Part shown: positions 1,382-27,867 of the stretch, one piece after another | How positions within the stretch are numbered: the first letter of the stretch is position 1 | Layout: each line of letters opens with the position of its first letter | Assembly: GCA_041476345.1 (NCBI GenBank) | Contig: JBGOTH010000001.1 | Location: 1-41,214 of the forward strand | Source of the DNA: Candidatus Methylomirabilia bacterium | GTDB taxonomy: Bacteria > Methylomirabilota > Methylomirabilia > Rokubacteriales > CSP1-6 | Length of the DNA: 41,214 nt | Direction: 5' to 3' | Program-made: the position numbers and the translations under genes | The notes under the pieces: generated by a model | Databases searched by the model: none | The model's input: the letters and a program-made list of their open reading frames with translations, nothing else | Told to the model about the DNA's origin: nothing

Positions 1382-1398
1382 TGCAACGGCGTTGCCAG
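1382..1398 (-). promoter_or_regulatory. sigma-54 promoter P1 (BON/TraR/PAS operon)
   Basis: The minus strand reads CTGGCAACGCCGTTGCA with exact GG-N10-GC spacing. The -12 GC is at 1383-1384, about 31 nt upstream of the ATG at 1352. Confidence 0.7.
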
Positions 1399-1440
1399 AC
1401 TCCGGCGTAACGAAGTCCATCACTTGCGAGTGACGCGCGC

Positions 1441-1488
1441 GCGACCTGGGACTCGAGCGCCCCAACCGCCGCGGGCGCCGGCGCCCCA
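1441..1488. promoter_or_regulatory. two GC-rich dyads upstream of P1 (candidate enhancer sites)
   Basis: In minus sense, 1465-1441 reads TTGGGGCGCTCGAGTCCCAGGTCGC (GGGG-N8-TCCC+AGGT). 1473-1486 is GGGCGCCGGCGCCC, a perfect 14-nt palindrome, followed by CA. Confidence 0.45.
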
Positions 1489-1494
1489 CCACTT

Positions 1495-3636
1495 TCACTG
1501 CACCGGACCGTGGATGGCACGGAGCAGCGCGAGCGCGCGGCCGGCGAGCGAGAACGGCACACCGACGTCGAGCGTGCGTGTCTTCACGGATGGCGCGTCC
1601 TCGGCTGTGTCCACGACAACCTCCCATCCGATGCCGGGGTGCGCGTTCGGCAAGACGAAGTCGACCGCCGCCGCTCGGGCGTTGAGCAGGACCAGTAGCG
1701 TGTCGTCGGTGATCGGCTCGCCGCGGTCGTTCACGTCGTCCATCGCGAGCCCGCACAGACGAAAACCGAACGCCGTCGTGCCGGCCGCCCAGTCGGCGCC
1801 CGTCATCTCGCCGCCGTCGGGGCGGAGCCACGTGAGATCCTTCATGCCCCCGGCGCAGTCGGGACTTCCCCGGAAGAATTTCCGGCGGTGCAGCTCGGGG
1901 TGCTCGCGGCGCAGCGCGATGAGCCGCCGCGTGAAGGCGAGCCGCGCGCGCGCCTCCTCGTCGAGCGTCCAGTCGTGCCACGAGATCTCGTTGTCCTGGC
2001 AGAACGCGTTGTTGTTGCCGCGCTGAGTCCGTCCGGTCTCGTCGCCGCCGCACAGCATCGGCACACCCTGGGACAGGAACAGCGTCGCGAGCAGGGTGCG
2101 CACCTGGCGCCGCCGCAGCGCCACGATCGCGGGGTCGTCGGTCGGCCCCTCGGCGCCGAAGTTCCACGAGAAGTTCTCGTCGGCACCGTCACGGTTGCCA
2201 AGGCCGTTGGCCTCGTTGTGCTTGCGCTCGTAGCTCACGAGGTCGGCGAGGGTGAAGCCGTCGTGCGCGGTGACGAAGTTGACGCTCGCGTACGGCCGGC
2301 GGCCGTCGCTCTGATAGAGATCGCTGGAGCCGGTGAGACGGTACGCGAGCTCGGCCACCTGCCCGTCACCCCGCCAGTACCGCCGCACGGCATCGCGATA
2401 CTTGCCGTTCCATTCCGCCCATCCCACGGGGAAGTTGCCGACCTGATAGCCGCCCTCTCCGAGATCCCAGGGCTCCGCGATGAGCTTCGCCTGACCGACG
2501 ACCGGGTCCTGGTGGATGACGTCGAAGAACGCCGACAGGCGATCGACGTCGTGGAGCTGGCGCGCGAGCGCGGCGGCGAGGTCGAAGCGGAAGCCGTCGA
2601 CGTGCATCTCGAGGATCCAGTACCGGAGACTGTCCATGAGCAGCTGGAGCGTGCGCGGATGCATCATGTTGAGCGTGTTGCCGCAGCCGGTGTAATCCAC
2701 GTAGCGGCGGCGATCGGCCGGGAGGAGCCGGTAGTACGCGTCGTTGTCGATGCCCCGGAACGAGAGCGTCGGCCCGAGATGGTCGCCTTCGGCGGTGTGG
2801 TTGTAGACGACGTCGAGGATGACCTCGATGCCGGCCTGATGCAGCGTCTTCACGAGCGTCTTGAACTCGCGCACCTGCTCGCCGCGGTCGCCTCCGCTCG
2901 AGTAGCGCGCGTCGGGCGCGAAGAAGCCGATCGAGTTGTAGCCCCAGTAATTCGTGAAGCCGAGGGCTGAGACGGCGCCTTCGGTCACCGCGTGGTGCAC
3001 GGGCAGGAGCTCGACGGCCGTCACGCCGAGCGCGCGGAGATAGTCGACGGCCGCGGGGGACGCGAGCCCGGCGTACGTCCCGCGCAGTGCCGCGGGCACG
3101 CCGGGGTGGCGGGCGGTGAACCCCTTCACGTGCAGCTCGTAGATGACCGTCTCGTTCCACGGCGTCCGGAGCGGGCGGTCGCCGTTCCACGGAAACGTGG
3201 AATCCACGACCACGCTCTTCGCGACGTGCGCCGCGTCGTCGACCGGATCCGGAGCGGGATCGTCGGGCGCTCCGCGACGATAGCCGAATATCGGGGCGTC
3301 GAGCGCGGGATGACCGGCGATCGCCCTCGCGTAGGGATCGAGGAGGAGCTTGGCCGGATCGAATCGATGGCCCGTCCACGGCTCGTAGGGACCGTGCACG
3401 CGATAGCCGTAGAGGAGGCCGGGCTTCGCTTCCGGCAGATACGCGTGCCACACCTGATCGGTCCGCTCGCCGAGCGGAATCCGCGCCGTCTCCCGTGCGG
3501 ACTCCGCATCGTCGAAGAGGCACAGCTCGATCTTCGAGGCGTGCTCGCTGAAGAGCGCGAAGTTCACCCCGATTCCGTCCCACGTCGCGCCGAGCGGAAA
3601 CGGACGTCCGGGCCACGCCCGCCACGCGATCGTCAC
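1495..3636 (-). CDS. glgX: glycogen debranching enzyme GlgX (GH13 isoamylase type)
   Basis: The N-terminus has WPGRPFPLGATWDGIGVNFALFSEHA. GH13 blocks are present: DVVYNHT, GFRFDLA, EPWD, FVTAHDGF. I start it at GTG 3636, which overlaps the USP stop as GTGA, rather than at track start 3687. Confidence 0.9.
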   Translation of the reverse strand: MTIAWRAWPGRPFPLGATWDGIGVNFALFSEHASKIELCLFDDAESARETARIPLGERTDQVWHAYLPEAKPGLLYGYRVHGPYEPWTGHRFDPAKLLLDPYARAIAGHPALDAPIFGYRRGAPDDPAPDPVDDAAHVAKSVVVDSTFPWNGDRPLRTPWNETVIYELHVKGFTARHPGVPAALRGTYAGLASPAAVDYLRALGVTAVELLPVHHAVTEGAVSALGFTNYWGYNSIGFFAPDARYSSGGDRGEQVREFKTLVKTLHQAGIEVILDVVYNHTAEGDHLGPTLSFRGIDNDAYYRLLPADRRRYVDYTGCGNTLNMMHPRTLQLLMDSLRYWILEMHVDGFRFDLAAALARQLHDVDRLSAFFDVIHQDPVVGQAKLIAEPWDLGEGGYQVGNFPVGWAEWNGKYRDAVRRYWRGDGQVAELAYRLTGSSDLYQSDGRRPYASVNFVTAHDGFTLADLVSYERKHNEANGLGNRDGADENFSWNFGAEGPTDDPAIVALRRRQVRTLLATLFLSQGVPMLCGGDETGRTQRGNNNAFCQDNEISWHDWTLDEEARARLAFTRRLIALRREHPELHRRKFFRGSPDCAGGMKDLTWLRPDGGEMTGADWAAGTTAFGFRLCGLAMDDVNDRGEPITDDTLLVLLNARAAAVDFVLPNAHPGIGWEVVVDTAEDAPSVKTRTLDVGVPFSLAGRALALLRAIHGPVQ

Positions 3637-4100
3637 GCGCGGAGGGGAGCGGCGCTCGCGTGGGGTCGTACGGTGAGCACGGGGCACGCCGCCGCGCGAA
3701 CGACGCGATCGGCGACGCTGCCGAGCATGAACCGCTCGAAGCCGCCGCGACCGTGCGTGCCGATGACGATGTACGTGGCCCGTTCCTCCGCCGCCGCCCT
3801 CAGGATCTCCTCGTGAGGGACGCCGACGCGCCGGCGCCAGACCGCCTTCACGCCCTCCTTCACCAGCCGCTGCGCGCGCTCACCGAGCCTCGCCTCCGCC
3901 CAGGCCGCCTGCGTCGCGTAGAGCTTCTCGAGCTCGCCCATGCCGAACGGCGTCTCGCCGTAGAGCGGCGCTTCGACCGACACGTGCAGGAGAATCAGCC
4001 CGGCGCCGAAGCCACGCGCGAGCCGTGCGGCTTCGGCTTCCGCCGCGTCCGCTTCGACCGAAAAATCCGTGGGGTGAAGAATCGTGACCTGGTCAGTCAT
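3633..4100 (-). CDS. universal stress protein (single USP domain)
   Basis: Reads MTDQVTILHPTDFS...ILLHV...ATYIVIGTHGRGGFERFMLGSVADRVVRAAACPVLTV. The ATG at 4100 is preceded by GGAGG. The longer track ORF (to 4526) is an unsupported extension. Confidence 0.9.
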   Translation of the reverse strand: MTDQVTILHPTDFSVEADAAEAEAARLARGFGAGLILLHVSVEAPLYGETPFGMGELEKLYATQAAWAEARLGERAQRLVKEGVKAVWRRRVGVPHEEILRAAAEERATYIVIGTHGRGGFERFMLGSVADRVVRAAACPVLTVRPHASAAPLRA

Positions 4101-4129
4101 GCGCACCTCCATTGCCGTGCGGCGATGGG

Positions 4130-4146
4130 TGCACCGCCAATGCCAG
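4130..4146 (-). promoter_or_regulatory. sigma-54 promoter P2 (USP-glgX operon)
   Basis: The minus strand reads CTGGCATTGGCGGTGCA with GG-N10-GC exact. The predicted leader to the ATG at 4100 is about 19 nt and contains the SD. Confidence 0.65.
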
Positions 4147-4211: not shown

Positions 4212-4240
4212 CCTCGCGTGGGGAGCCGCCACCCCAGTCG
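4212..4240. promoter_or_regulatory. GGGG-N8-CCCC dyad between divergent promoters P2 and P3
   Basis: Reads CCTCGCGTGGGGAGCCGCCACCCCAGTCG. In minus sense it is TGGGG-N8-CCCCACGCGAGG. It lies 54 bp from the P3 GG and 79 bp from the P2 GG. Confidence 0.5.
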
Positions 4241-4284: not shown

Positions 4285-4300
4285 TGGCGTATGCGTTGCA
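4285..4300 (+). promoter_or_regulatory. sigma-54 promoter P3 (LOG-family gene)
   Basis: Reads TGGCGTATGCGTTGCA with GG-N10-GC exact. The leader to the ATG at 4318 would be very short (about 7 nt), which lowers confidence. Confidence 0.55.
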
Positions 4301-4317: not shown

Positions 4318-5091
4318 ATGAAGGACGACAGAAGATCGATCGACACCGGCGCGGACTGGACGACCGCGGCGCATCCCGTCGAGGCCGTCCGCTTTCTCGA
4401 AGGTCCCCAATCGCGCGGCTTCGAGCTTGCCCGCGCGATCCGCATCTTCGTCGAGCTCATGCGCGGGTTCCGCGCGCTGCACTTCGTCGGGCCCTGCGTC
4501 ACCATCTTCGGCTCCGCCCGCTTCAAGGAAGACCATCCCTACTACGCGATCGCGCGCGAGGTCGGCGCCGGAGTCGCGCGCTGCGGGTTCACGGTGATGA
4601 CAGGCGGCGGGCCCGGCATCATGGAGGCGGCCAACCGGGGCGCGCGGGAGGCGGGCGGACGCTCGATCGGCTGCAACATCGAGCTGGCGCTAGAGCAGGA
4701 GCCCAACCCGTATCTCGATCGCTGGATCACCTTCCGCCACTTCTTCGTGCGCAAGCTGATGCTCGTGAAGTACTCGTACGCGTTCATCGCGCTGCCGGGA
4801 GGCTTCGGCACCCTGGACGAGATCTTCGAGACCGCCACGCTGATCCAGACCGGCAAGATCCGTGACTTCCCGCTCATCCTCGTCGGGAGGGACTTCTGGC
4901 GTCCGCTCACCGACTTCCTCCACGGCCCGCTCGAGGCCACGGCTGTCATCGATCCCGCCGACGCCGACCGCATTCGGGTCACGGACTCCGCGGCCGAGGC
5001 CGTGAGCGCCGTGCGCGACATCGCGATGCTGCGCTTCGGGCTGCACTACCCTCGCCCGCGGCGCCTCTGGTTCCTGCGCGAGCGCAGCTAG
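4318..5091 (+). CDS. LOG-family (TIGR00730) nucleotide/cytokinin riboside 5'-monophosphate phosphoribohydrolase-like protein
   Basis: Contains TIFGSARF...MTGGGPGIMEAANRGA...PGGFGTLDEIFE, the LOG PGGxGTxxE signature. The start is taken at ATG 4318. Confidence 0.85.
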   Translation: MKDDRRSIDTGADWTTAAHPVEAVRFLEGPQSRGFELARAIRIFVELMRGFRALHFVGPCVTIFGSARFKEDHPYYAIAREVGAGVARCGFTVMTGGGPGIMEAANRGAREAGGRSIGCNIELALEQEPNPYLDRWITFRHFFVRKLMLVKYSYAFIALPGGFGTLDEIFETATLIQTGKIRDFPLILVGRDFWRPLTDFLHGPLEATAVIDPADADRIRVTDSAAEAVSAVRDIAMLRFGLHYPRPRRLWFLRERS

Positions 5092-5092
5092 G

Positions 5093-5285
5093 TGGATTAT
5101 TCATGAGCGGGGCCGGGAGCGTGCCGCCTCCTGTCCTCGCCGAGGTGAGGGCGGTGGGCCGGGGTGGACGGCCGACATCCGCAGCCGCCTCGGCGAGGAC
5201 AGGAGGCCGTCTACCTCGGCCCACCGCCCTCACCTCGGCTGCGGATGTCGCCGGCACACCCCCGGCCTCGCTCATGAATAATCCA
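5093..5285. repeat. 193-bp MITE-like palindromic element filling the LOG-MFS intergenic space
   Basis: It has perfect 17-bp terminal inverted repeats: TGGATTATTCATGAGCG (5093-5109) and CGCTCATGAATAATCCA (5269-5285). The arm similarity extends to about 33 bp. The interior holds three interleaved inverted-repeat pairs in the order A B C A' B' C'. Confidence 0.6.
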
Positions 5286-5295
5286 GGCTAGCGCC

Positions 5296-6517: not shown

Positions 6518-6548
6518 TGGGGGCGGCGGCGCCCCAGGTGAGGTAGCC
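6518..6548. promoter_or_regulatory. GGGG-N8-CCCC+AGGTGAGG dyad upstream of P4
   Basis: Reads TGGGGGCGGCGGCGCCCCAGGTGAGGTAGCC. The CCCC starts 88 bp upstream of the P4 GG. Confidence 0.5.
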
Positions 6549-6619
6549 ACGCCGCTATTCATCGCGCGCTCGGCGCGCGCGCATCCCTCATCTGCGCGAT
6601 TTGTCTCTCGAAGCGCCGG

Positions 6620-6634
6620 GGTATGCCCATTGCA
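6620..6634 (+). promoter_or_regulatory. sigma-54 promoter P4 (Leu/Glu-type dehydrogenase)
   Basis: Reads GGTATGCCCATTGCA with GG-N10-GC exact. The -12 TTGCA is perfect; the -24 is weaker (GGTAT). Confidence 0.55.
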
Positions 6635-6682: not shown

Positions 6683-7804
6683 ATGAGCCTCGACGACGTT
6701 TTCGACGTTGCGGACGAGCTCGGTCCCTCGAAGATCATCCACGTCAGCGAGCCGACACTCGGGCTCAAAGCGGTGCTGGTCGTCGACAACGTCGCGCGCG
6801 GCCCGTCGATTGGCGGCCTTCGGATGGCGCCTGACGTGAGCACGACCGAGTGCGTCCGTCTCGCGCGGGCGATGACGCTGAAGAACGCCGCCGCCAACCT
6901 GCCTCACGGCGGCGGCAAGTCAGTGCTCTACGGCGACCCGCGCATGCCGCGCGACCGGAAGGAGCGCCTCATTCGCGGGTTCGCGCACGCCCTCCGGAAC
7001 GAGACGGACTACATCTTCGGTCCCGACATGGGCACCGACGAGGCGTGCATGGCGTGGGTCGAGGACGAGATCGGCCGCGCCGTCGGCCTGCCGGCCGCGC
7101 TCGGCGGCATTCCGCTCGACGAGATCGGGGCAACCGGCTGGGGCGTCCTCCACGCGGTGGAGACCGCGGCGTCCCATTGCAGGTTCGACCTCAAGGGCGC
7201 GCGCGTGGTGATCCAGGGCTTCGGGGCCGTCGGCAAGCACAGCGCGCGATTCCTGGTCGAACGCGGCGCGGTGCTCGTCGCGGCATCGGATTCTCGAGGG
7301 ACGATCTACGACCCAGGCGGGATTCGCGTGGCGGAGCTGATCGCGCTGAAGGCCGCCGGCGGCGCCGTCGGAGACTATGCGAGCGGCGGCGAGAAGCTCG
7401 ATCGCGATGCGGTGCTCGATGTGGAATGTGAGATCTGGATCCCTGCCGCCCGCCCCGATGTGGTGCGCGAGGACAACGTGGACCGTTTGAAGACCAGGCT
7501 GGTCGTCCAGGGCGCCAATATTCCATTCACGCCGGGCGCGGAGAAGATGCTGCACGACCGGGGCGTCCTGGTGATTCCCGATTTCATCGCGAACGCCGGC
7601 GGCGTCATCTGCGCCGCGATGGAGTACCACGGCGCGACGCAATCGGCGGCCTTCGCCGCGATCGAGGAGAGAACCCGCGCGAATACCACGGCGGTCCTCG
7701 ACGCGATGAAGGCCGAGAACGTCACGCCGCGTCGGGCCGCGCTCGATCTGGCGACCGCGCGCGTCAGAGAGGCGATGAGCTACCGCCGTTTCTCGATCTC
7801 CTGA
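6683..7804 (+). CDS. Glu/Leu/Phe/Val dehydrogenase family protein (LeuDH/ValDH-sized)
   Basis: 373 aa with GPSIGGLRM, the catalytic-Lys box LPHGGGKSV and the Rossmann motif IQGFGAVGK. Confidence 0.85.
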   Translation: MSLDDVFDVADELGPSKIIHVSEPTLGLKAVLVVDNVARGPSIGGLRMAPDVSTTECVRLARAMTLKNAAANLPHGGGKSVLYGDPRMPRDRKERLIRGFAHALRNETDYIFGPDMGTDEACMAWVEDEIGRAVGLPAALGGIPLDEIGATGWGVLHAVETAASHCRFDLKGARVVIQGFGAVGKHSARFLVERGAVLVAASDSRGTIYDPGGIRVAELIALKAAGGAVGDYASGGEKLDRDAVLDVECEIWIPAARPDVVREDNVDRLKTRLVVQGANIPFTPGAEKMLHDRGVLVIPDFIANAGGVICAAMEYHGATQSAAFAAIEERTRANTTAVLDAMKAENVTPRRAALDLATARVREAMSYRRFSIS

Positions 7805-7814
7805 CGCTACTCGC

Positions 7815-7840
7815 TGGGGCGCGGCGACCCCACGTGAGAC
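7815..7840. promoter_or_regulatory. GGGG-N8-CCCC+ACGTGAGAC dyad upstream of P5
   Basis: Reads TGGGGCGCGGCGACCCCACGTGAGAC. The CCCC starts 100 bp upstream of the P5 GG. A near-identical copy is at 12301-12326. Confidence 0.5.
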
Positions 7841-7926
7841 GTGCACGCAGCACTCGCACGGCTCGGCGTTGTCGCCGTTTCCAGCTCGCACCAAGCAATT
7901 TCGCGGAATTGCCCCGCTCGACTGAT

Positions 7927-7942
7927 TGGCATTGACGATGCA
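7927..7942 (+). promoter_or_regulatory. sigma-54 promoter P5 (PRTase-esterase operon)
   Basis: Reads TGGCATTGACGATGCA with GG-N10-GC exact. The SD AAGGGGGG and the TTG/GTG start at 7969/7972 follow. Confidence 0.65.
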
Positions 7943-7968: not shown

Positions 7969-8631
7969 TTGGTGCGTACCTTCCGCGACCGGCGACAGGC
8001 TGGGCAACTCCTCGCCGCGCATCTCGGCGCTTACGCAGGACGAGATGACGTGATCGTGCTCGCGTTGCCACGGGGTGGCGTTCCGGTTGCGTTCGAAATC
8101 GCCCGTGCGCTCCACGCCCCCCTCGACGTGTTCACGGTGCGCAAGCTCGGCGTGCCGGGCCACGAGGAATGGGGATTCGGTGCCATCGCAACGGGCGGTG
8201 TCAGAGTCCTCGATGACGACCTGGTCGACAGGCTCGGGTTACCCGTGCGCGTCATCGAACACATCACCGACCTCGAGCGTCGTGAGCTCGGACGACGTGA
8301 GCGCGCCTACCGCGGTGATCGACCGGCGCCCGCGGTGACCGGGAAGACAGTCATCGTCGTCGACGACGGGTTGGCGACGGGCGCGTCCATGCGCGCCGCC
8401 GTGCGGGCGCTGCGAGCGCTGCGACCGGCCGCGATCGTCGTGGCCGTACCCACGGGCGCCCGTGAGACGTGCCAGACGCTGCGGTCGGAGGTCGAGGCCC
8501 TCATCTGCGTCTCGATGCCCGAGCCGTTCTACGCCGTCGGATCGCAGTATCGCGACTTTCAGCCGACATCGGACGAGGAGGTGTGTCAGCTGCTCGCCGC
8601 CGCTCGGGACCAGGCGGCCGTTTCCGCATGA
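7969..8631 (+). CDS. phosphoribosyltransferase-family protein
   Basis: Contains F-RDRRQAG..LA..L...VLALPRGGVPVAFEIA and the PRPP loop VIVVDDGLATGAS. This type is commonly paired or fused with a dienelactone hydrolase. Confidence 0.85.
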   Translation: MVRTFRDRRQAGQLLAAHLGAYAGRDDVIVLALPRGGVPVAFEIARALHAPLDVFTVRKLGVPGHEEWGFGAIATGGVRVLDDDLVDRLGLPVRVIEHITDLERRELGRRERAYRGDRPAPAVTGKTVIVVDDGLATGASMRAAVRALRALRPAAIVVAVPTGARETCQTLRSEVEALICVSMPEPFYAVGSQYRDFQPTSDEEVCQLLAAARDQAAVSA

Positions 8632-9974
8632 CGACGAACGGCGAGGACCTCGCGGCGTCCGTGCGGCAGGTCGCCCGGCCGCTCGCGGGGACGCCGCGTG
8701 ATTTCGACCCCGTCATCGCCGCCGTCGATCGCGCGCGCTTCGTCCTCATCGGCGAGGCCTCGCACGGGACGCACGAGTTCTACCGCATCCGCGCCGAGAT
8801 CACGAAGCGGCTCATCCGCGAGTGCGGCTTCGAGGCGGTCGCCGTCGAGGCGGACTGGCCGGATGCCTACCGGATCAACCGGTATGTGCGCGGCGCCGGC
8901 ACGGATCACGATGCGATCGAGGCCCTCGACGACTTCAAGCGCTTTCCTCACTGGATGTGGCGTAACGCCGACGTGCTGGACTTCGTGGGCTGGCTGCGTG
9001 AGCACGACGACGCGTGCACGGATGATGCCCGGAAGGTCGGCTTCTACGGTCTCGACCTCTACAGCCTTCACGCCTCGATGGAGGCGGTGGTCCGTTACCT
9101 CCGGGTCGTCGATCCCGACGCCGCGCGCCGCGCGCAGTCCCGGTACGCGTGCTTCGACCACTTCGGCGGCGACGTCGAGACCTACGCCCGGACGGCGGGG
9201 TTGGGACTCGCCGCGTCGTGCGAGCGCGAGGTGGTGAGCCAGCTCGTCGATCTCCGGCGCTCCGCGTCCGACTACGCGCGCCGCGATGGGCGTGTGGCCG
9301 CGGACGATCTCTTCGTGGCCGAGCAGAATGCGCGCCTGGTGAAGAACGCCGAGGCGTACTACCGCACGATGTTCGGGGGCCACGTCGCGTCGTGGAATCT
9401 CCGCGACCGGCACATGGTCGAGACCCTGGAAGCGCTCGCCGAGCACGTGCAGGCAGCGCGTGGACGGCCCGCGAAGATCGTGGTGTGGGCGCACAACTCG
9501 CATCTCGGCGACGCCCGCGCCACCGAGCTCGGTCAGCGTGGCGAGTTGAACGTGGGTCAGCTCGTGCGTGAGCGCTACGGTCGCGAAGCGCTCCTCGTCG
9601 GCTTCACGACCAACGAAGGCACGGTGACCGCGGCGTCCGACTGGGGCGAGCCCGCCGAGCGCAAGACGGTGCGACCGGCCTTGCCCGGCAGCTACGAATC
9701 CATCTTCCACGCCGTGGGCCTGGGGAACTTCGCGCTGGACCTGCGCCATCACGGTCTCGCGAGCTCAGCGCTGGCGTCGCCACGACTCGAGCGCGCGATT
9801 GGTGTCGTGTACCGGCCGGAGACGGAGCGGCAGAGCCACTACTTCGACGCCGTGCTCCCGCGCCAGTTCGATCTGGTTTTACACTACGACCACACGCGCG
9901 CCGTCGAGCCGCTCGAGCGCACGGCCCAGTGGGAACGCGGCGAGTTGCCGGAAACATATCCGTCCTCGCTGTGA
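8628..9974 (+). CDS. erythromycin esterase-like (PF05139-type) protein
   Basis: The start is taken at ATG 8628 (ATGA overlap with the PRTase stop). Contains FVLIGEASHGTHEFY...AVEADWPD...VVWAHNSHLGD. Confidence 0.8.
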   Translation: MTTNGEDLAASVRQVARPLAGTPRDFDPVIAAVDRARFVLIGEASHGTHEFYRIRAEITKRLIRECGFEAVAVEADWPDAYRINRYVRGAGTDHDAIEALDDFKRFPHWMWRNADVLDFVGWLREHDDACTDDARKVGFYGLDLYSLHASMEAVVRYLRVVDPDAARRAQSRYACFDHFGGDVETYARTAGLGLAASCEREVVSQLVDLRRSASDYARRDGRVAADDLFVAEQNARLVKNAEAYYRTMFGGHVASWNLRDRHMVETLEALAEHVQAARGRPAKIVVWAHNSHLGDARATELGQRGELNVGQLVRERYGREALLVGFTTNEGTVTAASDWGEPAERKTVRPALPGSYESIFHAVGLGNFALDLRHHGLASSALASPRLERAIGVVYRPETERQSHYFDAVLPRQFDLVLHYDHTRAVEPLERTAQWERGELPETYPSSL

Positions 9975-17948: not shown

Positions 17949-17964
17949 CGGTCTCGCTCTTGCT
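17949..17964 (+). promoter_or_regulatory. possible sigma-54 promoter P11 (CBS-fragment/Cys-rich/baeRF1/tdh/kbl/ATPase operon)
   Basis: Reads CGGTCTCGCTCTTGCT with GG-N10-GC exact and a perfect -12 TTGCT, but the -24 has only the GG. The leader to the ATG at 17995 is about 20 nt and carries a GGGAG SD. Confidence 0.35.
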
Positions 17965-18257: not shown

Positions 18258-18270
18258 AGAGAGGATACGG

Positions 18271-19440: not shown

Positions 19441-19457
19441 CGGGAATCTGATCCGCG

Positions 19458-20510: not shown

Positions 20511-21700
20511 CGATGTACGGCGAGATCGTCAAGCAGCGACTCGCGGCCGAGCTCGACGAGATGGAGGCGACGGGACTGCTCAAGAGCGAGCGGGTCCTCC
20601 AGGGACCGCAGGGTCCCGAGGTCACGGTCGGCGGCCGGACGGTCCTCAATTTCTGCGCCAACAACTATCTCGGCCTCGCCGACGACCCGGCACTCGTCCA
20701 CGCCGCCCAGGATGGGCTCGCCCGCTGGGGCTTCGGGCTCGCCAGCGTGCGGTTCATCTGCGGCACTCAGACCATTCACAAGGAGCTCGAGGAGGCCATC
20801 GCCGGCTTCCTCGGCACCGACGACGTCATCCTCTACACGTCCTGCTTCGACGCCAACGGCGGCCTCTTCGAGACGCTGCTCGGGGAGGGCGACGTCGTGA
20901 TCTCCGACGCCCTCAACCACGCCTCGATCGTCGACGGCATCCGCCTCTGCCGCGCGGAACGCCACCGCTACGCGCACGGTGACATGGCCGACCTGGAGCG
21001 CATCCTCGCGGCGACGCGCGGCGCGCGCACGCGGCTCATCGCCACCGACGGCGTGTTCTCGATGGACGGCGACGTCGCACCCCTGGCGGAGATCTGCGAT
21101 CTCGCCGACCGCTACGACGCCCTCGTGATGGTGGACGACAGCCATGCCACCGGCTTCTTCGGTCCCACCGGGCGTGGGACGCCGGAGCATTGCGGCGTCC
21201 AGGCGCGCGTGGACATCATCACGTCGACTCTGGGCAAGGCGCTCGGCGGAGCCAGCGGCGGCTTCACGGCCGCGCGGCGCGAGATCGTTGCCATCCTGCG
21301 GCAGCGCTCGCGCCCCTACCTCTTCTCGAACACGCTGCCGCCCGCGCTCGTCTGCGCGTCCCTGGCCTGCCTCGAGCTGCTCGCGCGGTCGTCGATGCGG
21401 CGTGACGTGCTCGCCGCAAACACGCGGTGGTTTCGTGCAGCGATGACGGCCGCCGGCTTCGCCATTCGCCCCGGCGTCCATCCGATCGTCCCGATCGTGC
21501 TGGGCGACGCCCGCCTCGCCCAGCAGATGGCCGGCGATCTCCTGGAAGAGGGCATCTACGTCGTCGGCTTCTCCTATCCCGTCGTCCCCAGGGACGCGGC
21601 GCGCATCCGCGTGCAGCTCAGCGCCGCCCACACGCCGGCCCATCTCGAGCGCGCGGTCACGGCGTTCGTGAAAATCGGCCGCGTCCGTGGTGTCGTTTGA
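20507..21700 (+). CDS. kbl: glycine C-acetyltransferase (2-amino-3-ketobutyrate CoA ligase)
   Basis: Contains [29 protein letters not shown] and the PLP-Lys block [14 protein letters not shown]. The C-terminus reads [13 protein letters not shown]. Confidence 0.9.
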
Positions 21701-21705
21701 CCGCG

Positions 21706-24700
21706 ATGCCGGCTGCGCCCTCGCCCGCTCCGCCCCTCACGTCGCTCGTCGCCGGCGATCCGCAGTCGCTCGGGCCTGCCGTCGATTGCCTGGAAGCCCT
21801 CGCGCGCGCGCTCGGTCGGCCGGGGCTCTCCCGCGCGCGGCCGGTCGCCCTCGCGCCTGACGTCGTCCTCGTGCGCGACGAGGGGGCCGGCACGCTTGCG
21901 CTGACGTGCGTCGTCCTCGACCACGCGCCGCCCCTCGGGCCCGACGGCTCGCGGGCGAGGCTCGTCGTCGTCCTCGAGGCGCCCCTCGCAGCGAGCGCGC
22001 GCGGGGTGCGCGCTGCGGCGCGGCTGGCCGCCTGCCTCGCCAACATCGACGTGCGCGCACGGCTCATCTCCGCTCGTAATCGCCAGGACCTGGTCGAGGC
22101 GCTCGGTCCCGCGCAGGCGCGTGCCGGCGAAGCCGCGCTCGACGACGCGACGCTGTTCGCGCTGCTCGGGAGCACTGCCCGCGGGATCGAAAGCGCCGAG
22201 GCAACGCGCCGCCTCGCCGCGTGCGGAACCAATGAACTGCGCCGAGGGGCGCGCCGGTCGCTCGCCGCGCGTCTCGTCGCCCAGCTCACCAGCCTCTTCG
22301 CCGCCCTGCTCTGGATCGGTGGCGCGCTCGCCTTCCTCGTGGGCTCGCCGGAGGCCGGCTGGGCCATCTTCGGCGTCATCGTGATCAACGGCGTCTTCAG
22401 CTTCGTGCAGGAGTACCGGGCCGAGCGTGCGGTGGAGGCGCTGCAGGCGCTCCTCCCGCGCCGCATCGCGGTCCTGCGTGACGGCGCGGTCGTCACGGTC
22501 GACCTCACCGATGTCGTCCCGGGTGACGTGATCCAGCTGGCGGAGGGCGACCACGTGCCGGCCGACGGCCGCGTCCTCGACGCCGCGGGCCTGCGCGTCG
22601 ATCAGAGCGCGCTCACCGGCGAGCCGCAGCCGGTGTTCAAGCTGCCGCTGCGCGGTGACGGTCGCGAGAACGTCCCGCGGCTCGAGCGTACCGAGCTCGT
22701 CTTCGCGGGCACGAGCGTGATGGCCGGCGCCGCCACCGTGCTCGTGACCGCGACCGGCATGGAGACCGAGATCGGCGGGATCGCCAGGCTCACCGAGGCG
22801 GTCGAGGAAACCGCGAGCCCCCTCCAGCGCGAGCTGGCGCGCACGACCCGGGTCGTCACGGCCCTGGCGGTCGGGATCGGCGTGGGCGCCTTCGTGTTGA
22901 GCGTCGCGGCGAGACGGCTGGCGCTCGGCGAGGCACTGCTCTTCGCGCTCGGCGTCATCGTGGCGAACGTCCCCGAAGGTCTCCTCCCCACCCTCAGCCT
23001 GACCCTTGCGCTCGCCGTCCAGCGACTCGCGCGCGCCGGCACGCTGATGAAGCGGCTGAGCGCGGTCGAGACGCTCGGCGAGACGACCGTGATCTGCACG
23101 GACAAGACGGGCACGCTGACGCTCGGCACGATGGTGGTCCGTCATCTGTGGATCGACGGCCGGGTCATCGCCGGCGATGACTCCGCCGGTCGAGAGCTTC
23201 TCGAGGCCGCCACGCTCGCGTCGCTCGCCGGCCGCGACCGCGGGGATCCCACCGAGGTCGCGTTGGTGACCGCGGCCACCCAGGCCGGCGCGGATCCGGA
23301 CGCCCTCCGGAACGCGGCGCCGATCGTCACCCCCTACCCGTTCGACTCGTTCCGCAAGCGCATGACGCTCGTGCGCGACGGGCGCGGTGAACGCACGGCC
23401 TGGGTGAAGGGCGCTCCCGCCGAGACGCTCGCACTCTGCGCGTCGATACGGCAGGACGGACGAACGGTGTCGCTCACCGAGGCGCAGCGCCAGGCGATCC
23501 TCGCCGAGCACGACCGGCTCGCCGCGGAAGGACTCCGCATCCTCGCCGTCGCCACGCGCCCCGTGGGGAGCGAGCTGCACGATGCGCCGGCCGGCGTCAT
23601 CGAGCACGAGCTGACCTTCCTCGGGCTGATCGCGCTGTGGGATCCGCCGCGCCCCGAGGTCGCCGGCGCCGTCGCGGCATTCCGCCGCGCCGGTATCCGC
23701 GTCGTGATCGTCACCGGAGATTACGGGCTCACGGCGCGGTCGATCGCCCTCCAGATCGGGCTTGCGGCCACGAAAGTCGTCACCGGCGCGGAAGTGGAGC
23801 GCCTCCCGGCGAGCGCGCTCCGCGAGCTCGCGCTCGAGCCGGGCGTTCTGTTCGCGCGGACCTCGCCGGCGCACAAGCTCGCGATCGTCGAGGCGTTGCG
23901 AGCGGGCGGCGAGGTCGTGGCCGTGACCGGTGACGGCGTCAACGACGCGCCCGCGCTCAAGGCGGCCGACATCGGCGTCGCCATGGGGCAGCGCGGCAGC
24001 GACGTCGCCCGAGAGGCGTCGGAGATGGTGCTGGTGCGCGATGACTTCACCGCCATCGTCGCCGCCATCCGGCTCGGACGCGCGGCATGGGCCAACATCG
24101 GCAAGTTCGTCACCTACATCTTCGTCTCGAATCTCGCCGAGCTCGTGCCCTTCCTGGCGTTCGTCCTCTTCCACATTCCGCTGCCCTTGAACGTCCTGCA
24201 GATCCTCGCCATCGACCTCGGAACGAACCTCCTGCCCGGTCTCGCGCTCGGCGCGGAGGCACCGGAGCCGGGAGTGATGGAGCGGCCGCCACGATCGCGG
24301 ACCGAGCGGCTTCTCGGACGCGATCGCCTGCTGCGCGCGTATTGCTTCCTCGGCGTCGCGGAGGCGGCCTTGGCGCTGGCGGCGTTCTTCTGGGTGTACT
24401 GGCTCGCCGGCTGGCGTCCGGGGCTGCCGCTCGCGGCGGAGGGTGAGATCTACCGTCGCGCGACCACGATGACGTTTGCCGCCATCGTGGCCGGGCAGGT
24501 CGGCAACGTGTTCGCCTGCCGCACCGATCGCGTGTCCGTTTTCCACGTGGGCCTGGCCGCCAACCGCATGGTCATCTCGGCGGTGCTCGCAGAGATCGGC
24601 CTGCTCGTGGTGTTGATCCTCGTGCCGCCCTTCCCCGCCGTCCTCGGGTTGGCGCCGCTCGGCGTGCACGAGTGGAGCGTGCTCCTGCTCTTCCCATTCG

Positions 24701-24786
24701 TGATCCTGGGTCTCGAGGAGGGCCGCAAGTGGCTGGTGCGCCGCCCGTGGCGCGCGGCGGCCGACCGGCGAGTCCCCGAGCGCTGA
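21706..24786 (+). CDS. cation-transporting P-type ATPase (type II-like) with about 160-aa N-terminal extension
   Basis: Contains CTDKTGTLT, M4 PEGLLPT, TGDYGLTA and VTGDGVNDAPALK. The start is taken at ATG 21706, just after the kbl stop; the track ORF start 21427 overlaps kbl. Confidence 0.9.
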   Translation: MPAAPSPAPPLTSLVAGDPQSLGPAVDCLEALARALGRPGLSRARPVALAPDVVLVRDEGAGTLALTCVVLDHAPPLGPDGSRARLVVVLEAPLAASARGVRAAARLAACLANIDVRARLISARNRQDLVEALGPAQARAGEAALDDATLFALLGSTARGIESAEATRRLAACGTNELRRGARRSLAARLVAQLTSLFAALLWIGGALAFLVGSPEAGWAIFGVIVINGVFSFVQEYRAERAVEALQALLPRRIAVLRDGAVVTVDLTDVVPGDVIQLAEGDHVPADGRVLDAAGLRVDQSALTGEPQPVFKLPLRGDGRENVPRLERTELVFAGTSVMAGAATVLVTATGMETEIGGIARLTEAVEETASPLQRELARTTRVVTALAVGIGVGAFVLSVAARRLALGEALLFALGVIVANVPEGLLPTLSLTLALAVQRLARAGTLMKRLSAVETLGETTVICTDKTGTLTLGTMVVRHLWIDGRVIAGDDSAGRELLEAATLASLAGRDRGDPTEVALVTAATQAGADPDALRNAAPIVTPYPFDSFRKRMTLVRDGRGERTAWVKGAPAETLALCASIRQDGRTVSLTEAQRQAILAEHDRLAAEGLRILAVATRPVGSELHDAPAGVIEHELTFLGLIALWDPPRPEVAGAVAAFRRAGIRVVIVTGDYGLTARSIALQIGLAATKVVTGAEVERLPASALRELALEPGVLFARTSPAHKLAIVEALRAGGEVVAVTGDGVNDAPALKAADIGVAMGQRGSDVAREASEMVLVRDDFTAIVAAIRLGRAAWANIGKFVTYIFVSNLAELVPFLAFVLFHIPLPLNVLQILAIDLGTNLLPGLALGAEAPEPGVMERPPRSRTERLLGRDRLLRAYCFLGVAEAALALAAFFWVYWLAGWRPGLPLAAEGEIYRRATTMTFAAIVAGQVGNVFACRTDRVSVFHVGLAANRMVISAVLAEIGLLVVLILVPPFPAVLGLAPLGVHEWSVLLLFPFVILGLEEGRKWLVRRPWRAAADRRVPER

Positions 24787-25410: not shown

Positions 25411-25830
25411 TCACTCGTCGGCGAGCGACTCCCGTAGCGCCTCCAACACGTCGACATAGCTCACGATGCCGATCAGTTCACCGGTCTCGGGTCTGACGAC
25501 GGGAACCGCGCCCACGCGGTGCTCGATCAGGAGGTCGACCACTTCACCGAGCCCCGTCTCGGGATTGACGGCGACGACATCGGTGCTCATGACCTTCACG
25601 ACCGGGGTGCTGAGCTCGCGGCGAAGCGCCTCGGCTCCGTCAACCGTGAGGAGAGGCACCATGTCGAAGTGGGCGAGGTCGCGGTCGCTCAGCATGCCGA
25701 CGAGGGTGCCGCCGTCGAGCACGGGCACGTGTCGGATCGCCCGCACGCGCATGAGGTCCCAGACTTCGGCAACGGTCGCATCGGGGCTCACGAACACCGG
25801 ATTCGGCGTCATCAGATCTTGCGCGCTCAC
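25411..25830 (-). CDS. CBS-domain pair protein
   Basis: Two CBS repeats: DLMTPNPVFVSPDATVAEVWDLM...IRHVPVLD and VMSTDVVAVNPETGLGEVVDLL...GAVPVV. The GTG at 25830 is preceded by AAGGAGGAG; the longer track ORF is not supported. Confidence 0.85.
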   Translation of the reverse strand: MSAQDLMTPNPVFVSPDATVAEVWDLMRVRAIRHVPVLDGGTLVGMLSDRDLAHFDMVPLLTVDGAEALRRELSTPVVKVMSTDVVAVNPETGLGEVVDLLIEHRVGAVPVVRPETGELIGIVSYVDVLEALRESLADE

Positions 25831-25893: not shown

Positions 25894-25909
25894 TGCAACA
25901 CGAGTGCCG
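25894..25909 (-). promoter_or_regulatory. sigma-54 promoter P9 (CBS-PNPOx operon)
   Basis: The minus strand reads CGGCACTCGTGTTGCA, near-consensus GGCAC-N5-TTGCA. The leader is about 53 nt. Confidence 0.7.
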
Positions 25910-25997
25910 ATCGCGAACTCGCGGATTTGCTCGAATTCCGACGGATCGCTGCGGGAGATCGCCGTCGCGATGGGGCGACGCGGGGACACCTGGGAAC

Positions 25998-26020
25998 GGG
26001 GCGCCCCGCCCGGTGAGCGC
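25998..26020. promoter_or_regulatory. GGGG-N8-CC+GGTGAGCGC dyad upstream of P9
   Basis: Reads GGGGCGCCCCGCCCGGTGAGCGC, with CACCTGGG at 25987-25994 as a possible opposite half. It lies about 93 bp from the P9 GG and abuts the DASS stop codon. Confidence 0.4.
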
Positions 26021-26023
26021 CAC

Positions 26024-27496
26024 TCAGCGGTACAGCAGCACGAGGTAGGGCAGCTCCACGACGAGGATCGACACGAGGTAGAGGGCGCCGAAGACGAGCC
26101 CGAACGTCCAGAAGTCGCGGTGGCTGATGTAGCCGCTGCCGTAGTAGAGCGGCGCCGATCCCGTCGCGTACGGCGTGATGATCCCCATGAGCCCGAGCGT
26201 GTAGGACAGACACAGCGCGACCACGATGATGGGCAACTCCGGAATCACGACGATTGCAGTGAGCAGCACAGGCAAGAGCGCGGTGGCGTGCGCGGTGAGG
26301 CTCGCGAACATGTAGTGCGCGACGAAGAAGACGCTGACGATCAGGGCGACCTTGACCGCGACCGGGAAACCGCCGACGGAAGAGGCCAGCTTCGCCGCGA
26401 ACCACCGCAGGAACCCCACGCGGCCCAGACCGTCCGCCAGCGTGATCAACGTCGCGAACCAGACGAGGTTGTTCCACCCGCGCCGGTATTCGAGGACGTC
26501 GTCCCAGGACACGACGCGGGTCACGATCATCAGACAGAGGCTGAGGAGCGCCACCGTCGTGGCGTGTATCCACCGCCCTCCGAAGATCCAGAGCGACAGT
26601 GCGAGGATGGCGAGCAGCCCCATGCTCAGTTCTCGCCGCGAGAGCGGGCCCATCGCGACGAGCTCGCGGCCGGCCCACCTGGGAATCTCCGCGGTCGTCG
26701 TCACCGCCGGCCGACAGAGCCGATGGATGAGAAAGGGCTGGGCGACGAACAGCAGCAGGCCCAGCGGCAGGAAGCCGATCAGCCATTGCGTCCACGTCAC
26801 CTCGACGTGGGCGATCTCCTTCATCAGCGAGACGGCAAGCAGGTTCGGCGCGAGGGCAGTGACGAACATCGAGCTGGTGACGCACGTGGTGGCGAAGGCG
26901 GTCCACATCACGTACGCGCCGAGGCCCCGGCGGGTCTCTCCGGGTGCCGCGCCGTAGAGCGCGGGAATGTTCTCGACGATCGGGAAGACGATGCCGCCGC
27001 TCCGCGCGGTGTTCGACGGGACGAACGGCGCCAGGGCGAGGTCGGCCAGCGCGATCGCGTAGCCGAGCCCGAGGGTTCGTCCGCCCAGACGGCGGACCAG
27101 CAGGAGCGCGATCCGCCGGCCGAGCCCGGTCTTGGCGTAGCCGAGCGCGAACATGAAGGCGACGAACATCAGCCACACGGTGCTGTCCGCGAAGCCGGTG
27201 AGCGCCCAGCGGATCGAGTCGACGGGCCGAGGCGCGACGAGCAGGAGCACCGTCGCGACGGTGATGCCGATCAGCCCGGCCGCCGCACCGGGAATCGGCT
27301 CGGTGATCAGGCTGACGATCACCGCGAGGAACAGCGCGAAGTAGCGCCAGGCCTCAGTCGTGAGCCCGGCGGGCACGGGGAGCGCAGCGACGAGGCCGCC
27401 GACCAACAGCGGCAGGATCACCCGCCAGCGCCGGTCGCGCGATCCGAGCGGAGGACGCGTCGGCCACGTCGAGGCGTCGATTGCGCGCCCCGTCAT
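26024..27496 (-). CDS. DASS-family anion:cation symporter (2-oxoglutarate/malate or di/tricarboxylate/sulfate type)
   Basis: 490 aa from ATG 27496 (SD GAAGGAGG). Contains FVPSNTARSGGIVFPI and ITPYATGSAPLYYGSGY hairpin motifs typical of DASS/SLC13. Confidence 0.8.
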   Translation of the reverse strand: MTGRAIDASTWPTRPPLGSRDRRWRVILPLLVGGLVAALPVPAGLTTEAWRYFALFLAVIVSLITEPIPGAAAGLIGITVATVLLLVAPRPVDSIRWALTGFADSTVWLMFVAFMFALGYAKTGLGRRIALLLVRRLGGRTLGLGYAIALADLALAPFVPSNTARSGGIVFPIVENIPALYGAAPGETRRGLGAYVMWTAFATTCVTSSMFVTALAPNLLAVSLMKEIAHVEVTWTQWLIGFLPLGLLLFVAQPFLIHRLCRPAVTTTAEIPRWAGRELVAMGPLSRRELSMGLLAILALSLWIFGGRWIHATTVALLSLCLMIVTRVVSWDDVLEYRRGWNNLVWFATLITLADGLGRVGFLRWFAAKLASSVGGFPVAVKVALIVSVFFVAHYMFASLTAHATALLPVLLTAIVVIPELPIIVVALCLSYTLGLMGIITPYATGSAPLYYGSGYISHRDFWTFGLVFGALYLVSILVVELPYLVLLYR

Positions 27497-27594
27497 AGTG
27501 ACCTCCTTCGGGAAGCCGGTGCCGGAGTGCACTGAGCGTCGGTATTGGAGAGAAGGGCCCGAGGGGCCAAGTTCGACGACGCAAAGAAGGTACA

Positions 27595-27638
27595 GCTTCC
27601 CGCCCGAGATTCTTACCAATTCGACCGCAGCGGGAAGC
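27595..27638. repeat. 9-bp inverted repeat with AT-richer 26-nt loop in the 400-bp divergent intergenic region
   Basis: GCTTCCCGC (27595-27603) pairs with GCGGGAAGC (27630-27638). The loop is CCGAGATTCTTACCAATTCGACCGCA. Function unknown. Confidence 0.3.
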
Positions 27639-27717
27639 GCGGCCTCGGACGCCCGCCACCCCTCCAGCGACACGCTCGCCCGGCTGCCTATTTCCGCTGT
27701 GGTCTTGACGACCGGGG

Positions 27718-27745
27718 TGGGGCAGCAGGAGGACACGTGAGGCGG
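27718..27745. promoter_or_regulatory. TGGGG-N8-GGAC+ACGTGAGGCGG element upstream of P10
   Basis: Reads TGGGGCAGCAGGAGGACACGTGAGGCGG. The right CCCC is replaced by GGAC but the ACGTGAGG tail is conserved. It lies 122 bp upstream of the P10 GG. Confidence 0.4.
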
Positions 27746-27851
27746 GAGTGCCCGCCCAAGCCTCTCGGAGCCAAGCCTTGGCATCGCCGGGTGTGCCGTG
27801 GAACGCCGCAGTTAGACGTCGCGTTCGGCGAATCGTGTCTCGGGCGTGCTC

Positions 27852-27867
27852 TGGCACCGCCCTTGCC
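27852..27867 (+). promoter_or_regulatory. sigma-54 promoter P10 (tandem-USP / glucan synthase operon)
   Basis: Reads (C)TGGCACCGCCCTTGCC, near-consensus, with GG-N10-GC exact. The leader to the ATG at 27899 is about 21 nt and includes the SD GGAGGAGG. Confidence 0.75.

Follow-up and report, generated by a model that had tools for sequence, protein, structure and literature searches.

A cluster of putative sigma-54 promoters with a common enhancer palindrome in a Methylomirabilota genome, and a candidate oxygen-sensing relay beside it

Introduction

Can one alternative sigma factor, helped by a single activator, control most operons in a long stretch of dormancy and stress genes, and if so, which activator and which signal are involved? 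The question is raised by 41.2 kb of DNA (~69% GC) from Candidatus Methylomirabilia bacterium (GenBank assembly GCA_041476345.1, contig JBGOTH010000001.1, positions 1 to 41,214), which in its full length is called the window here. It takes in the greater part of an island of ~48 kb in the genome of this member of Methylomirabilota. By its erythromycin esterase, the nearest species-representative genome is a Methylomirabilota metagenome-assembled genome (MAG) with 83% identity, and the next ones, from Gemmatimonadales, have at most 73%. An earlier note on this DNA had listed eleven sigma-54 (-24/-12) promoter motifs, had taken them as a strong local enrichment, and had suggested that nearly every operon between the BON gene and the glucan synthase gene depends on an enhancer. 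The present analysis makes it likely, on the evidence of motifs, geometry, and conservation, that the window is a sigma-54 regulon with a common enhancer. That the regulon answers to oxygen through a kinase relay encoded beside it may well be so, but we hold this with slightly more doubt than belief.

Results

Sigma-54-type sites ahead of operons

All eleven motifs (P1 to P11) were found again, letter by letter, at the positions and on the strands that had been given for them (Table 1), and the GG-N10-GC spacing holds in 11/11. Relative to the consensus TGGCAY-N5-TTGCW, eight sites have at most one mismatch, P4 and P7 have two, and P11 has three, with the correct spacing. Across the aligned sites, TTGCW is as conserved as TGGCA. 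Every site points to the adjacent start codon, and the predicted leaders are 7-53 nt long, mainly 16-21 nt, with a Shine-Dalgarno sequence in most of them, much as the earlier note had described.

The enrichment also stood. At up to one mismatch, the window contains 8 matches where 0.85 are expected (200 first-order Markov simulations, maximum 4). All eight lie in the 10.2% of the window (4,191 nt) that is noncoding by our own gene calls, which were made from codon-position GC content and open reading frames (ORFs), with Pfam assignments. Such a placement of all eight in noncoding DNA would have a probability of ~1e-8 if sites were placed at random. Each of them faces the next start codon. The shorter motif TGGC-N8-TGC occurs 15 times versus 7.1 expected, and 0/100 shuffles reach 15. 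When two mismatches are allowed there are 25 matches versus 15.1 expected, and the additional ones are mainly intragenic and at chance level. Hence, the motif is not equally dense within genes. A scan for the sigma-70 consensus gave 0 matches in 40 kb, a result that is weakly informative at 69% GC.

The weaker sites deserve a separate comment. P4 and P7, though poor in their -24 elements, are backed by their context, and the counterpart of P4 upstream of the orthologous gene in a related MAG (L001) is a strong site (TGGCACTGCGGTTGCG). P11 is a weak or decaying site, which its context supports all the same. The transcription unit of P8 probably extends as far as 17811 and takes in the AMP-ligase/acyltransferase and MFS genes. 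The proposal that nearly every operon is enhancer-dependent is supported for about 11 transcription units, with their common palindrome and its phasing (see following), but not for the gene of the DASS transporter or for those to the right of the glucan synthase, which have no canonical sigma-54 site. In front of the DASS gene (26024-27784, minus strand) there is just an off-spacing GG-N11-GC that overlaps the annotated ATG (with 27785-27810). The L001 ortholog of this gene has a canonical site with a palindrome, and the Pfam domain of the window protein starts at residue 118; either its promoter was lost or its start codon has been wrongly placed.

A common palindrome on one face of the helix

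An alignment of the regions on the -24 element shows two more conserved parts upstream. Nearly every site is preceded by an 18-bp palindrome, TGGGGC-N6-GCCCCA, with a spacer of 6 nt throughout and its centre 57-105 nt upstream of the T of TGGCA. At up to two mismatches the window has 11 copies versus 3.3 expected, and 9/11 are in promoter-bearing intergenic regions. Conversely, 8/11 promoters have a palindrome matching at 10/12 positions or better within 130 nt, versus 2.7% of random 130-nt windows. At up to one mismatch, the window and L001 have 5 copies each; homologous loci of other phyla have just 2 in ~1.15 Mb, and unrelated loci encoding bacterial enhancer-binding proteins (bEBPs) have 3 in 0.71 Mb. 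The half-site TGGGGC is missing from L073 and from the Gemmatimonadales loci. Each of the divergent pairs P2/P3 and P6/P7 has one palindrome in common, and P1 and P11 have two apiece. The distances between palindrome and promoter fall near 58, 70, 81, 91, and 103 nt, and by the Rayleigh statistic the strongest periodicity is at 10.5 bp (R = 0.75, n = 16, p ~1e-4). The palindrome thus keeps to one face of the helix as seen from the promoter.

A third block, YAA-N4-YTGATW, lies between the palindrome and the promoter and is the reverse complement of the core consensus of integration host factor (IHF), WATCAR-N4-TTR. It ends 16-17 nt before TGGCA in 14/20 promoters. Matches at 7/9 positions or better are found in 10/20 promoters versus 3.9% of control windows, and perfect matches (9/9) in 3 of the 20 versus 0.06% of controls. 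Palindrome, putative IHF site, and -24/-12 element, if they function as their sequences suggest, make up the textbook enhancer–bend–promoter layout.

Conservation among Methylomirabilota and beyond

The three-part layout was found in four related Methylomirabilota MAGs (L001, L169, L170, and L171), which add 22 sites. L001 (83% amino acid identity) has 7 sites with at most one mismatch in 16 kb, each with a palindrome and a positioned IHF-like element. They precede the orthologous CBS, Glu/Leu dehydrogenase, DASS, and 138-aa genes, a kinase-CBS-USP operon (USP, universal stress protein), an MBL-rhodanese gene, and a borderline HPF-like gene. The other three MAGs, L169 (84%), L170 (78%), and L171 (71%), were obtained through their CBS homologs and used as a validation set. 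They have 5 sites each in 15-20 kb. Sites in the relatives are also found upstream of further USP, nitroreductase, Tdh-Kbl, and efflux genes. Within the validation set, the palindrome matches at 10/12 or better at 9/15 sites, at distances of 58-63, 70, or 80-81 nt, and with the same phase (7.4 versus 6.9 nt; R = 0.75, p ~0.007). The IHF-like element matches at 7/9 or better in 3/15 and at 6/9 or better in 9/15, in the same place, and there are two further 9/9 sites at the same position. Orthologous intergenic regions of the window and L001, aligned with MAFFT, are too diverged for footprinting, and a motif-anchored comparison was therefore used instead. Because this DNA otherwise hardly aligns, conservation is confined to the motif blocks.

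Outside the phylum, the operon encoding the phosphoribosyltransferase (PRTase) and the erythromycin esterase has sigma-54-like sites (up to two mismatches) upstream in 12/58 loci, versus 3/58 on the antisense strand. The loci with such sites (L017, L028, L041, L051, L060, and others) belong to Planctomycetota, Acidobacteriota, Myxococcota, and some Gemmatimonadaceae MAGs. For example, the Kofleriaceae MAG L041 has a perfect GCGCA-N5-TGCGC site, the type bound by NmpR of Myxococcus (see Discussion), upstream of its PRTase homolog. Most Gemmatimonadales loci have no sigma-54-like site before this operon. Hence, the sigma-54 wiring is recurrent, not universal, and another regulator must act in those genomes.

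Candidate activator and sensor

A second MAG of the same species (GCA_041491405.1) has contigs that overlap the window, one of which (L081) extends it leftward. With this contig there are at least 13 sigma-54 promoters in ~48 kb of this species. Past the BON gene, L081 encodes in order a PAS-HisKA-HATPase kinase, a single-domain receiver protein, a receiver-PAS-HisKA-HATPase hybrid kinase, an ABC exporter, an M50/CBS protease, a cytochrome c, a DksA/TraR protein, a receiver-Sigma54_activat-HTH_8 protein, a USP, and an APH-family (aminoglycoside phosphotransferase domain) kinase. The eighth of these is a bEBP of the NtrC type. It retains the receiver Asp, the Walker A motif (GESGTGKE), an intact GAFTGA, and the HTH_8 domain. 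From a bEBP with an intact GAFTGA, the presence of sigma-54 in the host genome can safely be inferred. The USP gene that directly follows the bEBP gene has a perfect TGGCACTCCGGTTGCT site upstream, accompanied by a palindrome matching at 11/12 positions and an IHF-like site matching at 9/9, and a weaker sigma-54 site is found ahead of the DksA-bEBP operon. The PAS domain of the first kinase aligns end to end with the heme domains of FixL (1d06, 1.4e-18; 1dp6, 1.1e-16) and also with Escherichia coli DosP, and the position of the proximal His is conserved.

From these elements one may propose the following mechanism. One NtrC-type enhancer-binding protein, most likely the receiver-AAA+-HTH_8 protein whose gene lies just to the left of the window, would occupy the palindrome in dimeric or oligomeric form. 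The DNA would bend, either by virtue of its own sequence or through an IHF-like protein, and so bring the activator to the closed complex of the sigma-54 holoenzyme, and ATP hydrolysis would then open all of these promoters together. The most likely input would be low oxygen or redox state, sensed by the neighboring FixL-like heme-PAS kinase and passed through the receiver protein and the hybrid kinase to the bEBP, as in the NmpRSTU system of Myxococcus. The output would be the dormancy and stress genes: USP, CBS, BON, DUF2267, PRTase/erythromycin-esterase/dienelactone-hydrolase (DLH), P-type ATPase, baeRF, glycogen debranching, and cyclic glucan synthesis.

Several points weigh against this proposal. 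At the promoters themselves, the -24 elements of P4, P7, and P11 are degenerate, the palindromes of P9 and P10 reach 9/12 only, and the IHF consensus has 9 positions in a genome of 69% GC and is clear in ~60% of the sites. Further points concern the relay. The region upstream of the kinase cassette has no recognizable sigma-54 site, and what ties this particular bEBP to the palindrome is its proximity. The retrieved parts of L001, L169, L170, and L171 contain no bEBP gene, and the oxygen signal is suggested by the homology of one PAS domain together with gene content. A scan of JGI metagenome contigs with the bEBP, meant to find orthologous regulator loci, gave only generic NtrC relatives with 38-49% identity, none of them with the palindrome.

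A tie by proximity between bEBP and palindrome, and the kinase cassette without a sigma-54 site of its own, would equally suit a reading in which sigma-54 promoters and common enhancer are as described, while the signal is energy or nutrient starvation, desiccation, or another stress, and acts via a bEBP encoded elsewhere. The four relatives have the promoters with no such gene nearby, and the gene content (USP, CBS, BON, glycogen and glucan genes, and the borderline HPF-like gene in L001) fits general dormancy or desiccation just as well. We consider this reading unlikely, though not negligible. Against it, a FixL-like heme-PAS domain with conserved proximal His directly adjoins the island, the order of the cassette is that of the oxygen-responsive NmpU-T-S, and the perfect promoter with palindrome stands directly downstream of the bEBP gene. 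Two other bEBP homologs, near the erythromycin-esterase gene in L072 and L068, were considered and rejected; the one in L072 adjoins a T2SS-F gene and looks PilR-like, and is thus unrelated.

Other readings of the motifs

The motifs might also be parts of a repeated intergenic element, REP- or MITE-like or derived from duplicated intergenic DNA, with no promoter function. The regions of P4 and P7, and those of P5 and P8, are indeed paralogous over ~50-100 nt with 79-85% identity, and the island has other duplications and gene remnants. Beyond these two pairs, the regions have in common just three short blocks, at enhancer distances that vary but are phased. Each site is oriented to a start codon 7-53 nt beyond its predicted transcription start, the blocks are kept in five species whose intergenic DNA is otherwise unalignable, and the core is the universal sigma-54 consensus. 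A repeated origin accounts only for the pairs P4/P7 and P5/P8, and as an explanation of the whole we find it very improbable.

Even less credit can be given to recognition by a stress sigma factor of the sigma-70 family (SigB, SigF, or ECF type), with a GATTT patch as -35, TGGCAT as -10, and TTGCA as incidental. An AT-rich patch does lie 15-17 nt upstream of TGGCAT, like a -35/-10 spacing, and the GGGTAT of P4 resembles the -10 elements of SigB and SigF as commonly given. This patch is absent or shifted in ~40% of the sites, but the -24/-12 element is not. The TTGCW one helical turn downstream is conserved equally to TGGCA, with the GG and GC doublets invariant at N10, and a phased upstream palindrome and a GAFTGA bEBP are features exclusive to sigma-54 systems. 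Finally, chance matches in GC-rich DNA, to which the near-random rate of two-mismatch matches inside genes might point, are refuted by the statistics given previously (0/200 simulations above 4, and 8/8 sites in the noncoding 10%) and by the co-occurrence of the sites with two further motifs and their conservation across species.

Gene content and duplications in the island

The genes of the window and the regulatory genes of L081 are listed in Table 1 together with the promoter elements. Further genes of families like those of the DosR regulon (see Discussion) lie next to the island in this species and its relatives. An M50 protease with CBS domains is found at 8257-9396 of L081, and an RtcB gene and a borderline HPF/Ribosomal_S30AE gene at 582-2069 and 13308-13691 of L001; the last one scores 23.3 bits versus a cut-off of 23.7 and has a sigma-54 site in front. 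In L171, a full-length RpoD-like gene of the sigma-70 family (8402-9796) lies between the RtcB/archease genes and the sigma-54-driven CBS gene, and may provide the island with a second sigma factor that is specific to stress.

A direct repeat of 103 nt with 83% identity links 13343-13445, at the start of a 93-aa ORF, with 18104-18206, in the region of the baeRF start. P11 is followed by a mere 36-aa fragment of a CBS gene (17995-18105). The paralogous promoter regions extend over 6532-6634 and 11512-11614 for P4/P7, and over 7812-7867 and 12298-12353 for P5/P8. Together, these three observations indicate that the island has been rearranged by duplication. In the 394-nt gap after the erythromycin-esterase gene, 53 nt (10019-10071) are 94% identical to a part of the DLH gene (12763-12815). 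This stretch looks like the remnant of a DLH copy, and the relatives L003 and L073 have the order PRTase, esterase, DLH at that place.

The gap between the stop codon of the LOG gene (5091) and the start of the following MFS gene (5296) is filled by a single-copy imperfect palindrome of ~206 nt (5087-5292). Its arms of ~81-95 nt are 80-83% complementary, and the corresponding RNA would fold at -176 kcal/mol (z = -16). It has no match in Rfam, and the only other copy found is on a contig of the same species (L084). It could be a terminator or insulator, or the relic of an inverted duplication.

Table 1. Promoter elements and genes of the window, and regulatory genes on the same-species contig L081. 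Fractions give matching positions to the palindrome (of 12) or to the IHF core consensus (of 9).
Feature	Sequence	Position	Strand	Remarks
P1, -24/-12 site	TGGCAACGCCGTTGCA	1382-1397	-	into BON gene; predicted leader 19 nt
P1, IHF-like site	CAAGTGATGGACT	1414-1426	-	7/9
P1, two adjacent enhancer palindromes		1447-1488		1447-1464, 11/12; 1471-1488, 10/12
P2, -24/-12 site	TGGCATTGGCGGTGCA	4130-4145	-	into USP and GlgX-like genes
P2, IHF-like site	CAAATGGTTGGAA	4163-4175	-	7/9
P2/P3, palindrome	TGGGGAGCCGCCACCCCA	4219-4236		82 nt from P2, 57 nt from P3
P3, -24/-12 site	TGGCGTATGCGTTGCA	4285-4300	+	into LOG/Lysine_decarbox gene; predicted leader just 7 nt
P4, palindrome	GGGGGCGGCGGCGCCCCA	6519-6536		11/12; 91 nt from P4
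P4, IHF-like site	CATCTGCGCGATT	6589-6601	+	6/9
P4, -24/-12 site	GGGTATGCCCATTGCA	6619-6634	+	weak -24 (GGGTATG...); into Glu/Leu dehydrogenase gene
P5, palindrome	TGGGGCGCGGCGACCCCA	7815-7832		11/12; 103 nt from P5
P5, -24/-12 site	TGGCATTGACGATGCA	7927-7942	+	into PRTase and erythromycin-esterase genes
P6, -24/-12 site	TGGCATCGCCGTTGCG	11370-11385	-	into 39-aa ORF, DUF2267 gene, 138-aa ORF
P6, IHF-like site	CAACGGTGTGATT	11402-11414	-	8/9
P6/P7, palindrome	TGAGGCACGCGTGCCCCA	11436-11453		59 nt from P6, 154 nt from divergent P7
P7, IHF-like site	CATCTGCGCGATT	11569-11581	+	6/9
P7, -24/-12 site	AGGCAGGCCTGTTGCA	11599-11614	+	weak -24 (AGGCAGG...); into cation-efflux gene; region paralogous to that of P4
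P8, palindrome	TGGGGCGCAATGACCCCA	12301-12318		11/12; 101 nt from P8
P8, -24/-12 site	TGGCATTAACGATGCA	12411-12426	+	into 50-aa ORF and DLH gene; region paralogous to that of P5
P11, two palindrome-like sites		17859-17896		17859-17876 and 17879-17896; 10/12 each; at 81.5 and 61.5 nt
P11, -24/-12 site	CGGTCTCGCTCTTGCT	17949-17964	+	3 mismatches in -24; into 36-aa CBS fragment, then baeRF to P-type ATPase genes
P9, -24/-12 site	CGGCACTCGTGTTGCA	25894-25909	-	into CBS-pair gene; orthologous promoters conserved in L001, L169, L171
P9, degenerate palindrome	CGGGGCGCCCCGTTCCCA	25991-26008		9/12; 90 nt from P9; same arrangement in L169
P10, degenerate palindrome	TGAGGCGGGAGTGCCCGC	27738-27755		9/12; 105 nt from P10
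P10, -24/-12 site	TGGCACCGCCCTTGCC	27852-27867	+	into tandem USP and GH94 cyclic-glucan-synthase-like genes
FixL-like heme-PAS histidine kinase, N-terminus		2-379	-	runs on beyond the window; first of kinase, receiver, hybrid-kinase cassette; NtrC-type bEBP gene ~6 kb further on (L081)
Triple-BON protein		657-1352	-	
GlgX-like debranching enzyme		1495-3687	-	overlapped by USP gene
USP		3633-4100	-	
LOG/Lysine_decarbox protein		4318-5091	+	then MFS transporter gene, start 5296
Glu/Leu dehydrogenase		6683-7804	+	
PRTase and erythromycin esterase		7969-9974	+	
39-aa ORF, DUF2267 gene, 138-aa ORF		11330 down to 10369	-	
Cation-efflux protein		11644-12282	+	
50-aa ORF and DLH		12454-13347	+	then AMP-ligase/acyltransferase and MFS genes up to 17811
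36-aa CBS fragment, then baeRF release-factor-like, Tdh-like, Kbl-like, P-type ATPase genes		17995-24786	+	
CBS-pair protein		25411-25830	-	
DASS transporter		26024-27784	-	
Tandem USP		27899-28951	+	
GH94 cyclic-glucan-synthase-like protein		28984-37362	+	2,792 aa
MFS transporter, small ORF, PolX				right of the glucan synthase
PAS-HisKA-HATPase kinase		L081 3072-4184		
Receiver protein		L081 4181-4630		single Response_reg, 149 aa
Hybrid kinase		L081 4630-6102		Response_reg-PAS-HisKA-HATPase
NtrC-type bEBP		L081 10250-11647		Response_reg, Sigma54_activat, HTH_8; ~9 kb beyond the left end of the window

Discussion

A tentative picture, toward which we lean less than halfway and less than toward the oxygen relay itself, is that Methylomirabilota (Rokubacteria-like soil bacteria) have put together, under sigma-54, a counterpart of the DosR dormancy regulon of mycobacteria. 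It would comprise a dozen or more operons with USP, CBS, BON, PRTase/esterase, ATPase, and baeRF genes, one heme-PAS relay and one bEBP, with a lineage-specific enhancer and a bend element at a fixed position, and the same wiring with other enhancers would exist in Myxococcota (with NmpR-type sites), Planctomycetota, and Acidobacteriota. If this is true, sigma-54, and not a DosR-type regulator, would be a common switch for hypoxia and dormancy in dominant uncultured soil phyla. The little understood set of genes in common with the DosR regulon of Mycobacterium tuberculosis (PRTase/erythromycin-esterase/DLH, USP, CBS, and BON) would then be tied to a second and mechanistically different master switch, and two different switches for one gene set help to part gene function from gene control. 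The analysis also provides a concrete regulatory model, with promoter, enhancer, candidate activator, and candidate sensor, for a phylum without cultured soil representatives or genetics. The signature of enhancer and promoter could serve to define the full extent of the regulon in MAGs and, in metatranscriptomes, to tell when these abundant soil bacteria turn low-oxygen or dormant.

Among systems that have been studied, NmpRSTU of Myxococcus xanthus is the closest, and a literature search on sigma-54 control of this gene set, or on sigma-54 in Rokubacteria/Methylomirabilota, returned only the paper describing NmpR. In that system, the oxygen-sensing heme kinase NmpU keeps the hybrid kinase NmpS off; under low oxygen, NmpR, an NtrC-like protein, is phosphorylated by NmpS and turns on sigma-54 promoters from GCGCA-N5-TGCGC sites, and its regulon includes the genes of a P-type ATPase, a USP, and a CBS protein (McAllister et al. 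2025, J Bacteriol, PMC11841059). The two systems resemble each other in their soluble heme-based sensor kinase, receiver-only protein, hybrid kinase with N-terminal receiver and C-terminal HisKA-CA, and NtrC-like regulator, and in an inverted-repeat enhancer at sigma-54 promoters. The predicted domain architecture of the bEBP matches that of NmpR, and the gene order of kinase, receiver, and hybrid kinase is that of nmpU-nmpT-nmpS. Both regulons include CBS-domain, USP, and P-type ATPase genes, and both show autoregulation, here as predicted from the site ahead of the operon. There are also clear differences. The sensor here is a FixL-type PAS domain while that of NmpU is a protoglobin, the receiver protein has one receiver domain while NmpT has two, and the hybrid kinase contains an additional PAS domain. 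The enhancer is TGGGGC-N6-GCCCCA instead of GCGCA-N5-TGCGC, and its sites are mostly single, while the Nmp sites are paired at 14-15 bp. The NmpR consensus has 8 matches in the window versus 10.6 expected, none of them associated with a promoter. There are at least 13 promoters in this species versus 7, and the part examined here lacks the cbb3 oxidase and hemN and has PRTase/erythromycin-esterase/DLH, BON, DUF2267, and glucan genes. Since sensor domain, receiver count, enhancer, and regulon size differ, the system would work like Nmp without being a demonstrated ortholog.

The second comparison is with DosR/DevR, a hypoxia regulon under the control of heme kinases, as is proposed for the island. 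The mycobacterial DosR set includes erythromycin-esterase/PRTase fusions, an eRF1-like protein, RtcB, and nitroreductases, and these families occur in the window or in the loci of its relatives. Other members in M. tuberculosis are several USPs, the CBS-pair protein Rv2626c, the P-type ATPase CtpF, the phosphoribosyltransferase Rv0571c, and the M50 zinc protease Rv2625c (PMC7753917). USP, CBS pair, P-type ATPase, and PRTase are all found here, and the M50 protease of L081 may be compared with Rv2625c. When the CBS and tandem-USP proteins were searched against the PDB, the proteins of the M. tuberculosis DosR regulon did not stand out, and the resemblance is thus at the level of protein families only. 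The regulators are different: DosR is of the NarL/LuxR type and acts on sigma-70-type promoters through Dev boxes, and its sensors are of the GAF-heme and not the PAS-heme kind. The Dev box (TTSGGGACTWWAGTCCCSAA) has 0 matches at up to three mismatches in the window. To our knowledge, Actinobacteria have no sigma-54.

With FixL/FixJ, the island has in common a kinase PAS domain that is homologous over its whole length to the FixL heme domains, with the proximal His aligned. The output differs, as here an NtrC-type bEBP would be reached through a hybrid kinase, while FixJ is a LuxR-type regulator working through sigma-70 promoters.

The promoters themselves are best compared with the classical enhancer–IHF–sigma-54 promoters, such as those of nifH, glnHp2, and Pu of Pseudomonas. 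Such promoters share with the present ones an activator palindrome ~80-130 bp from the start, an IHF-consensus site between it and the promoter, the GG-N10-GC element, and dependence on the face of the helix. Promoters of the type have been described in general terms (PMC5095919, PMC4987338). Here, one type of enhancer serves about a dozen clustered operons, the bend element stands at a near-fixed distance from the -24 element (ending 16-17 nt before TGGCA), and the enhancer may be as near as about -84. In conclusion, the promoter biology is orthodox, and what is unusual is a dense and complete regulon with a single common enhancer in an uncultured phylum.

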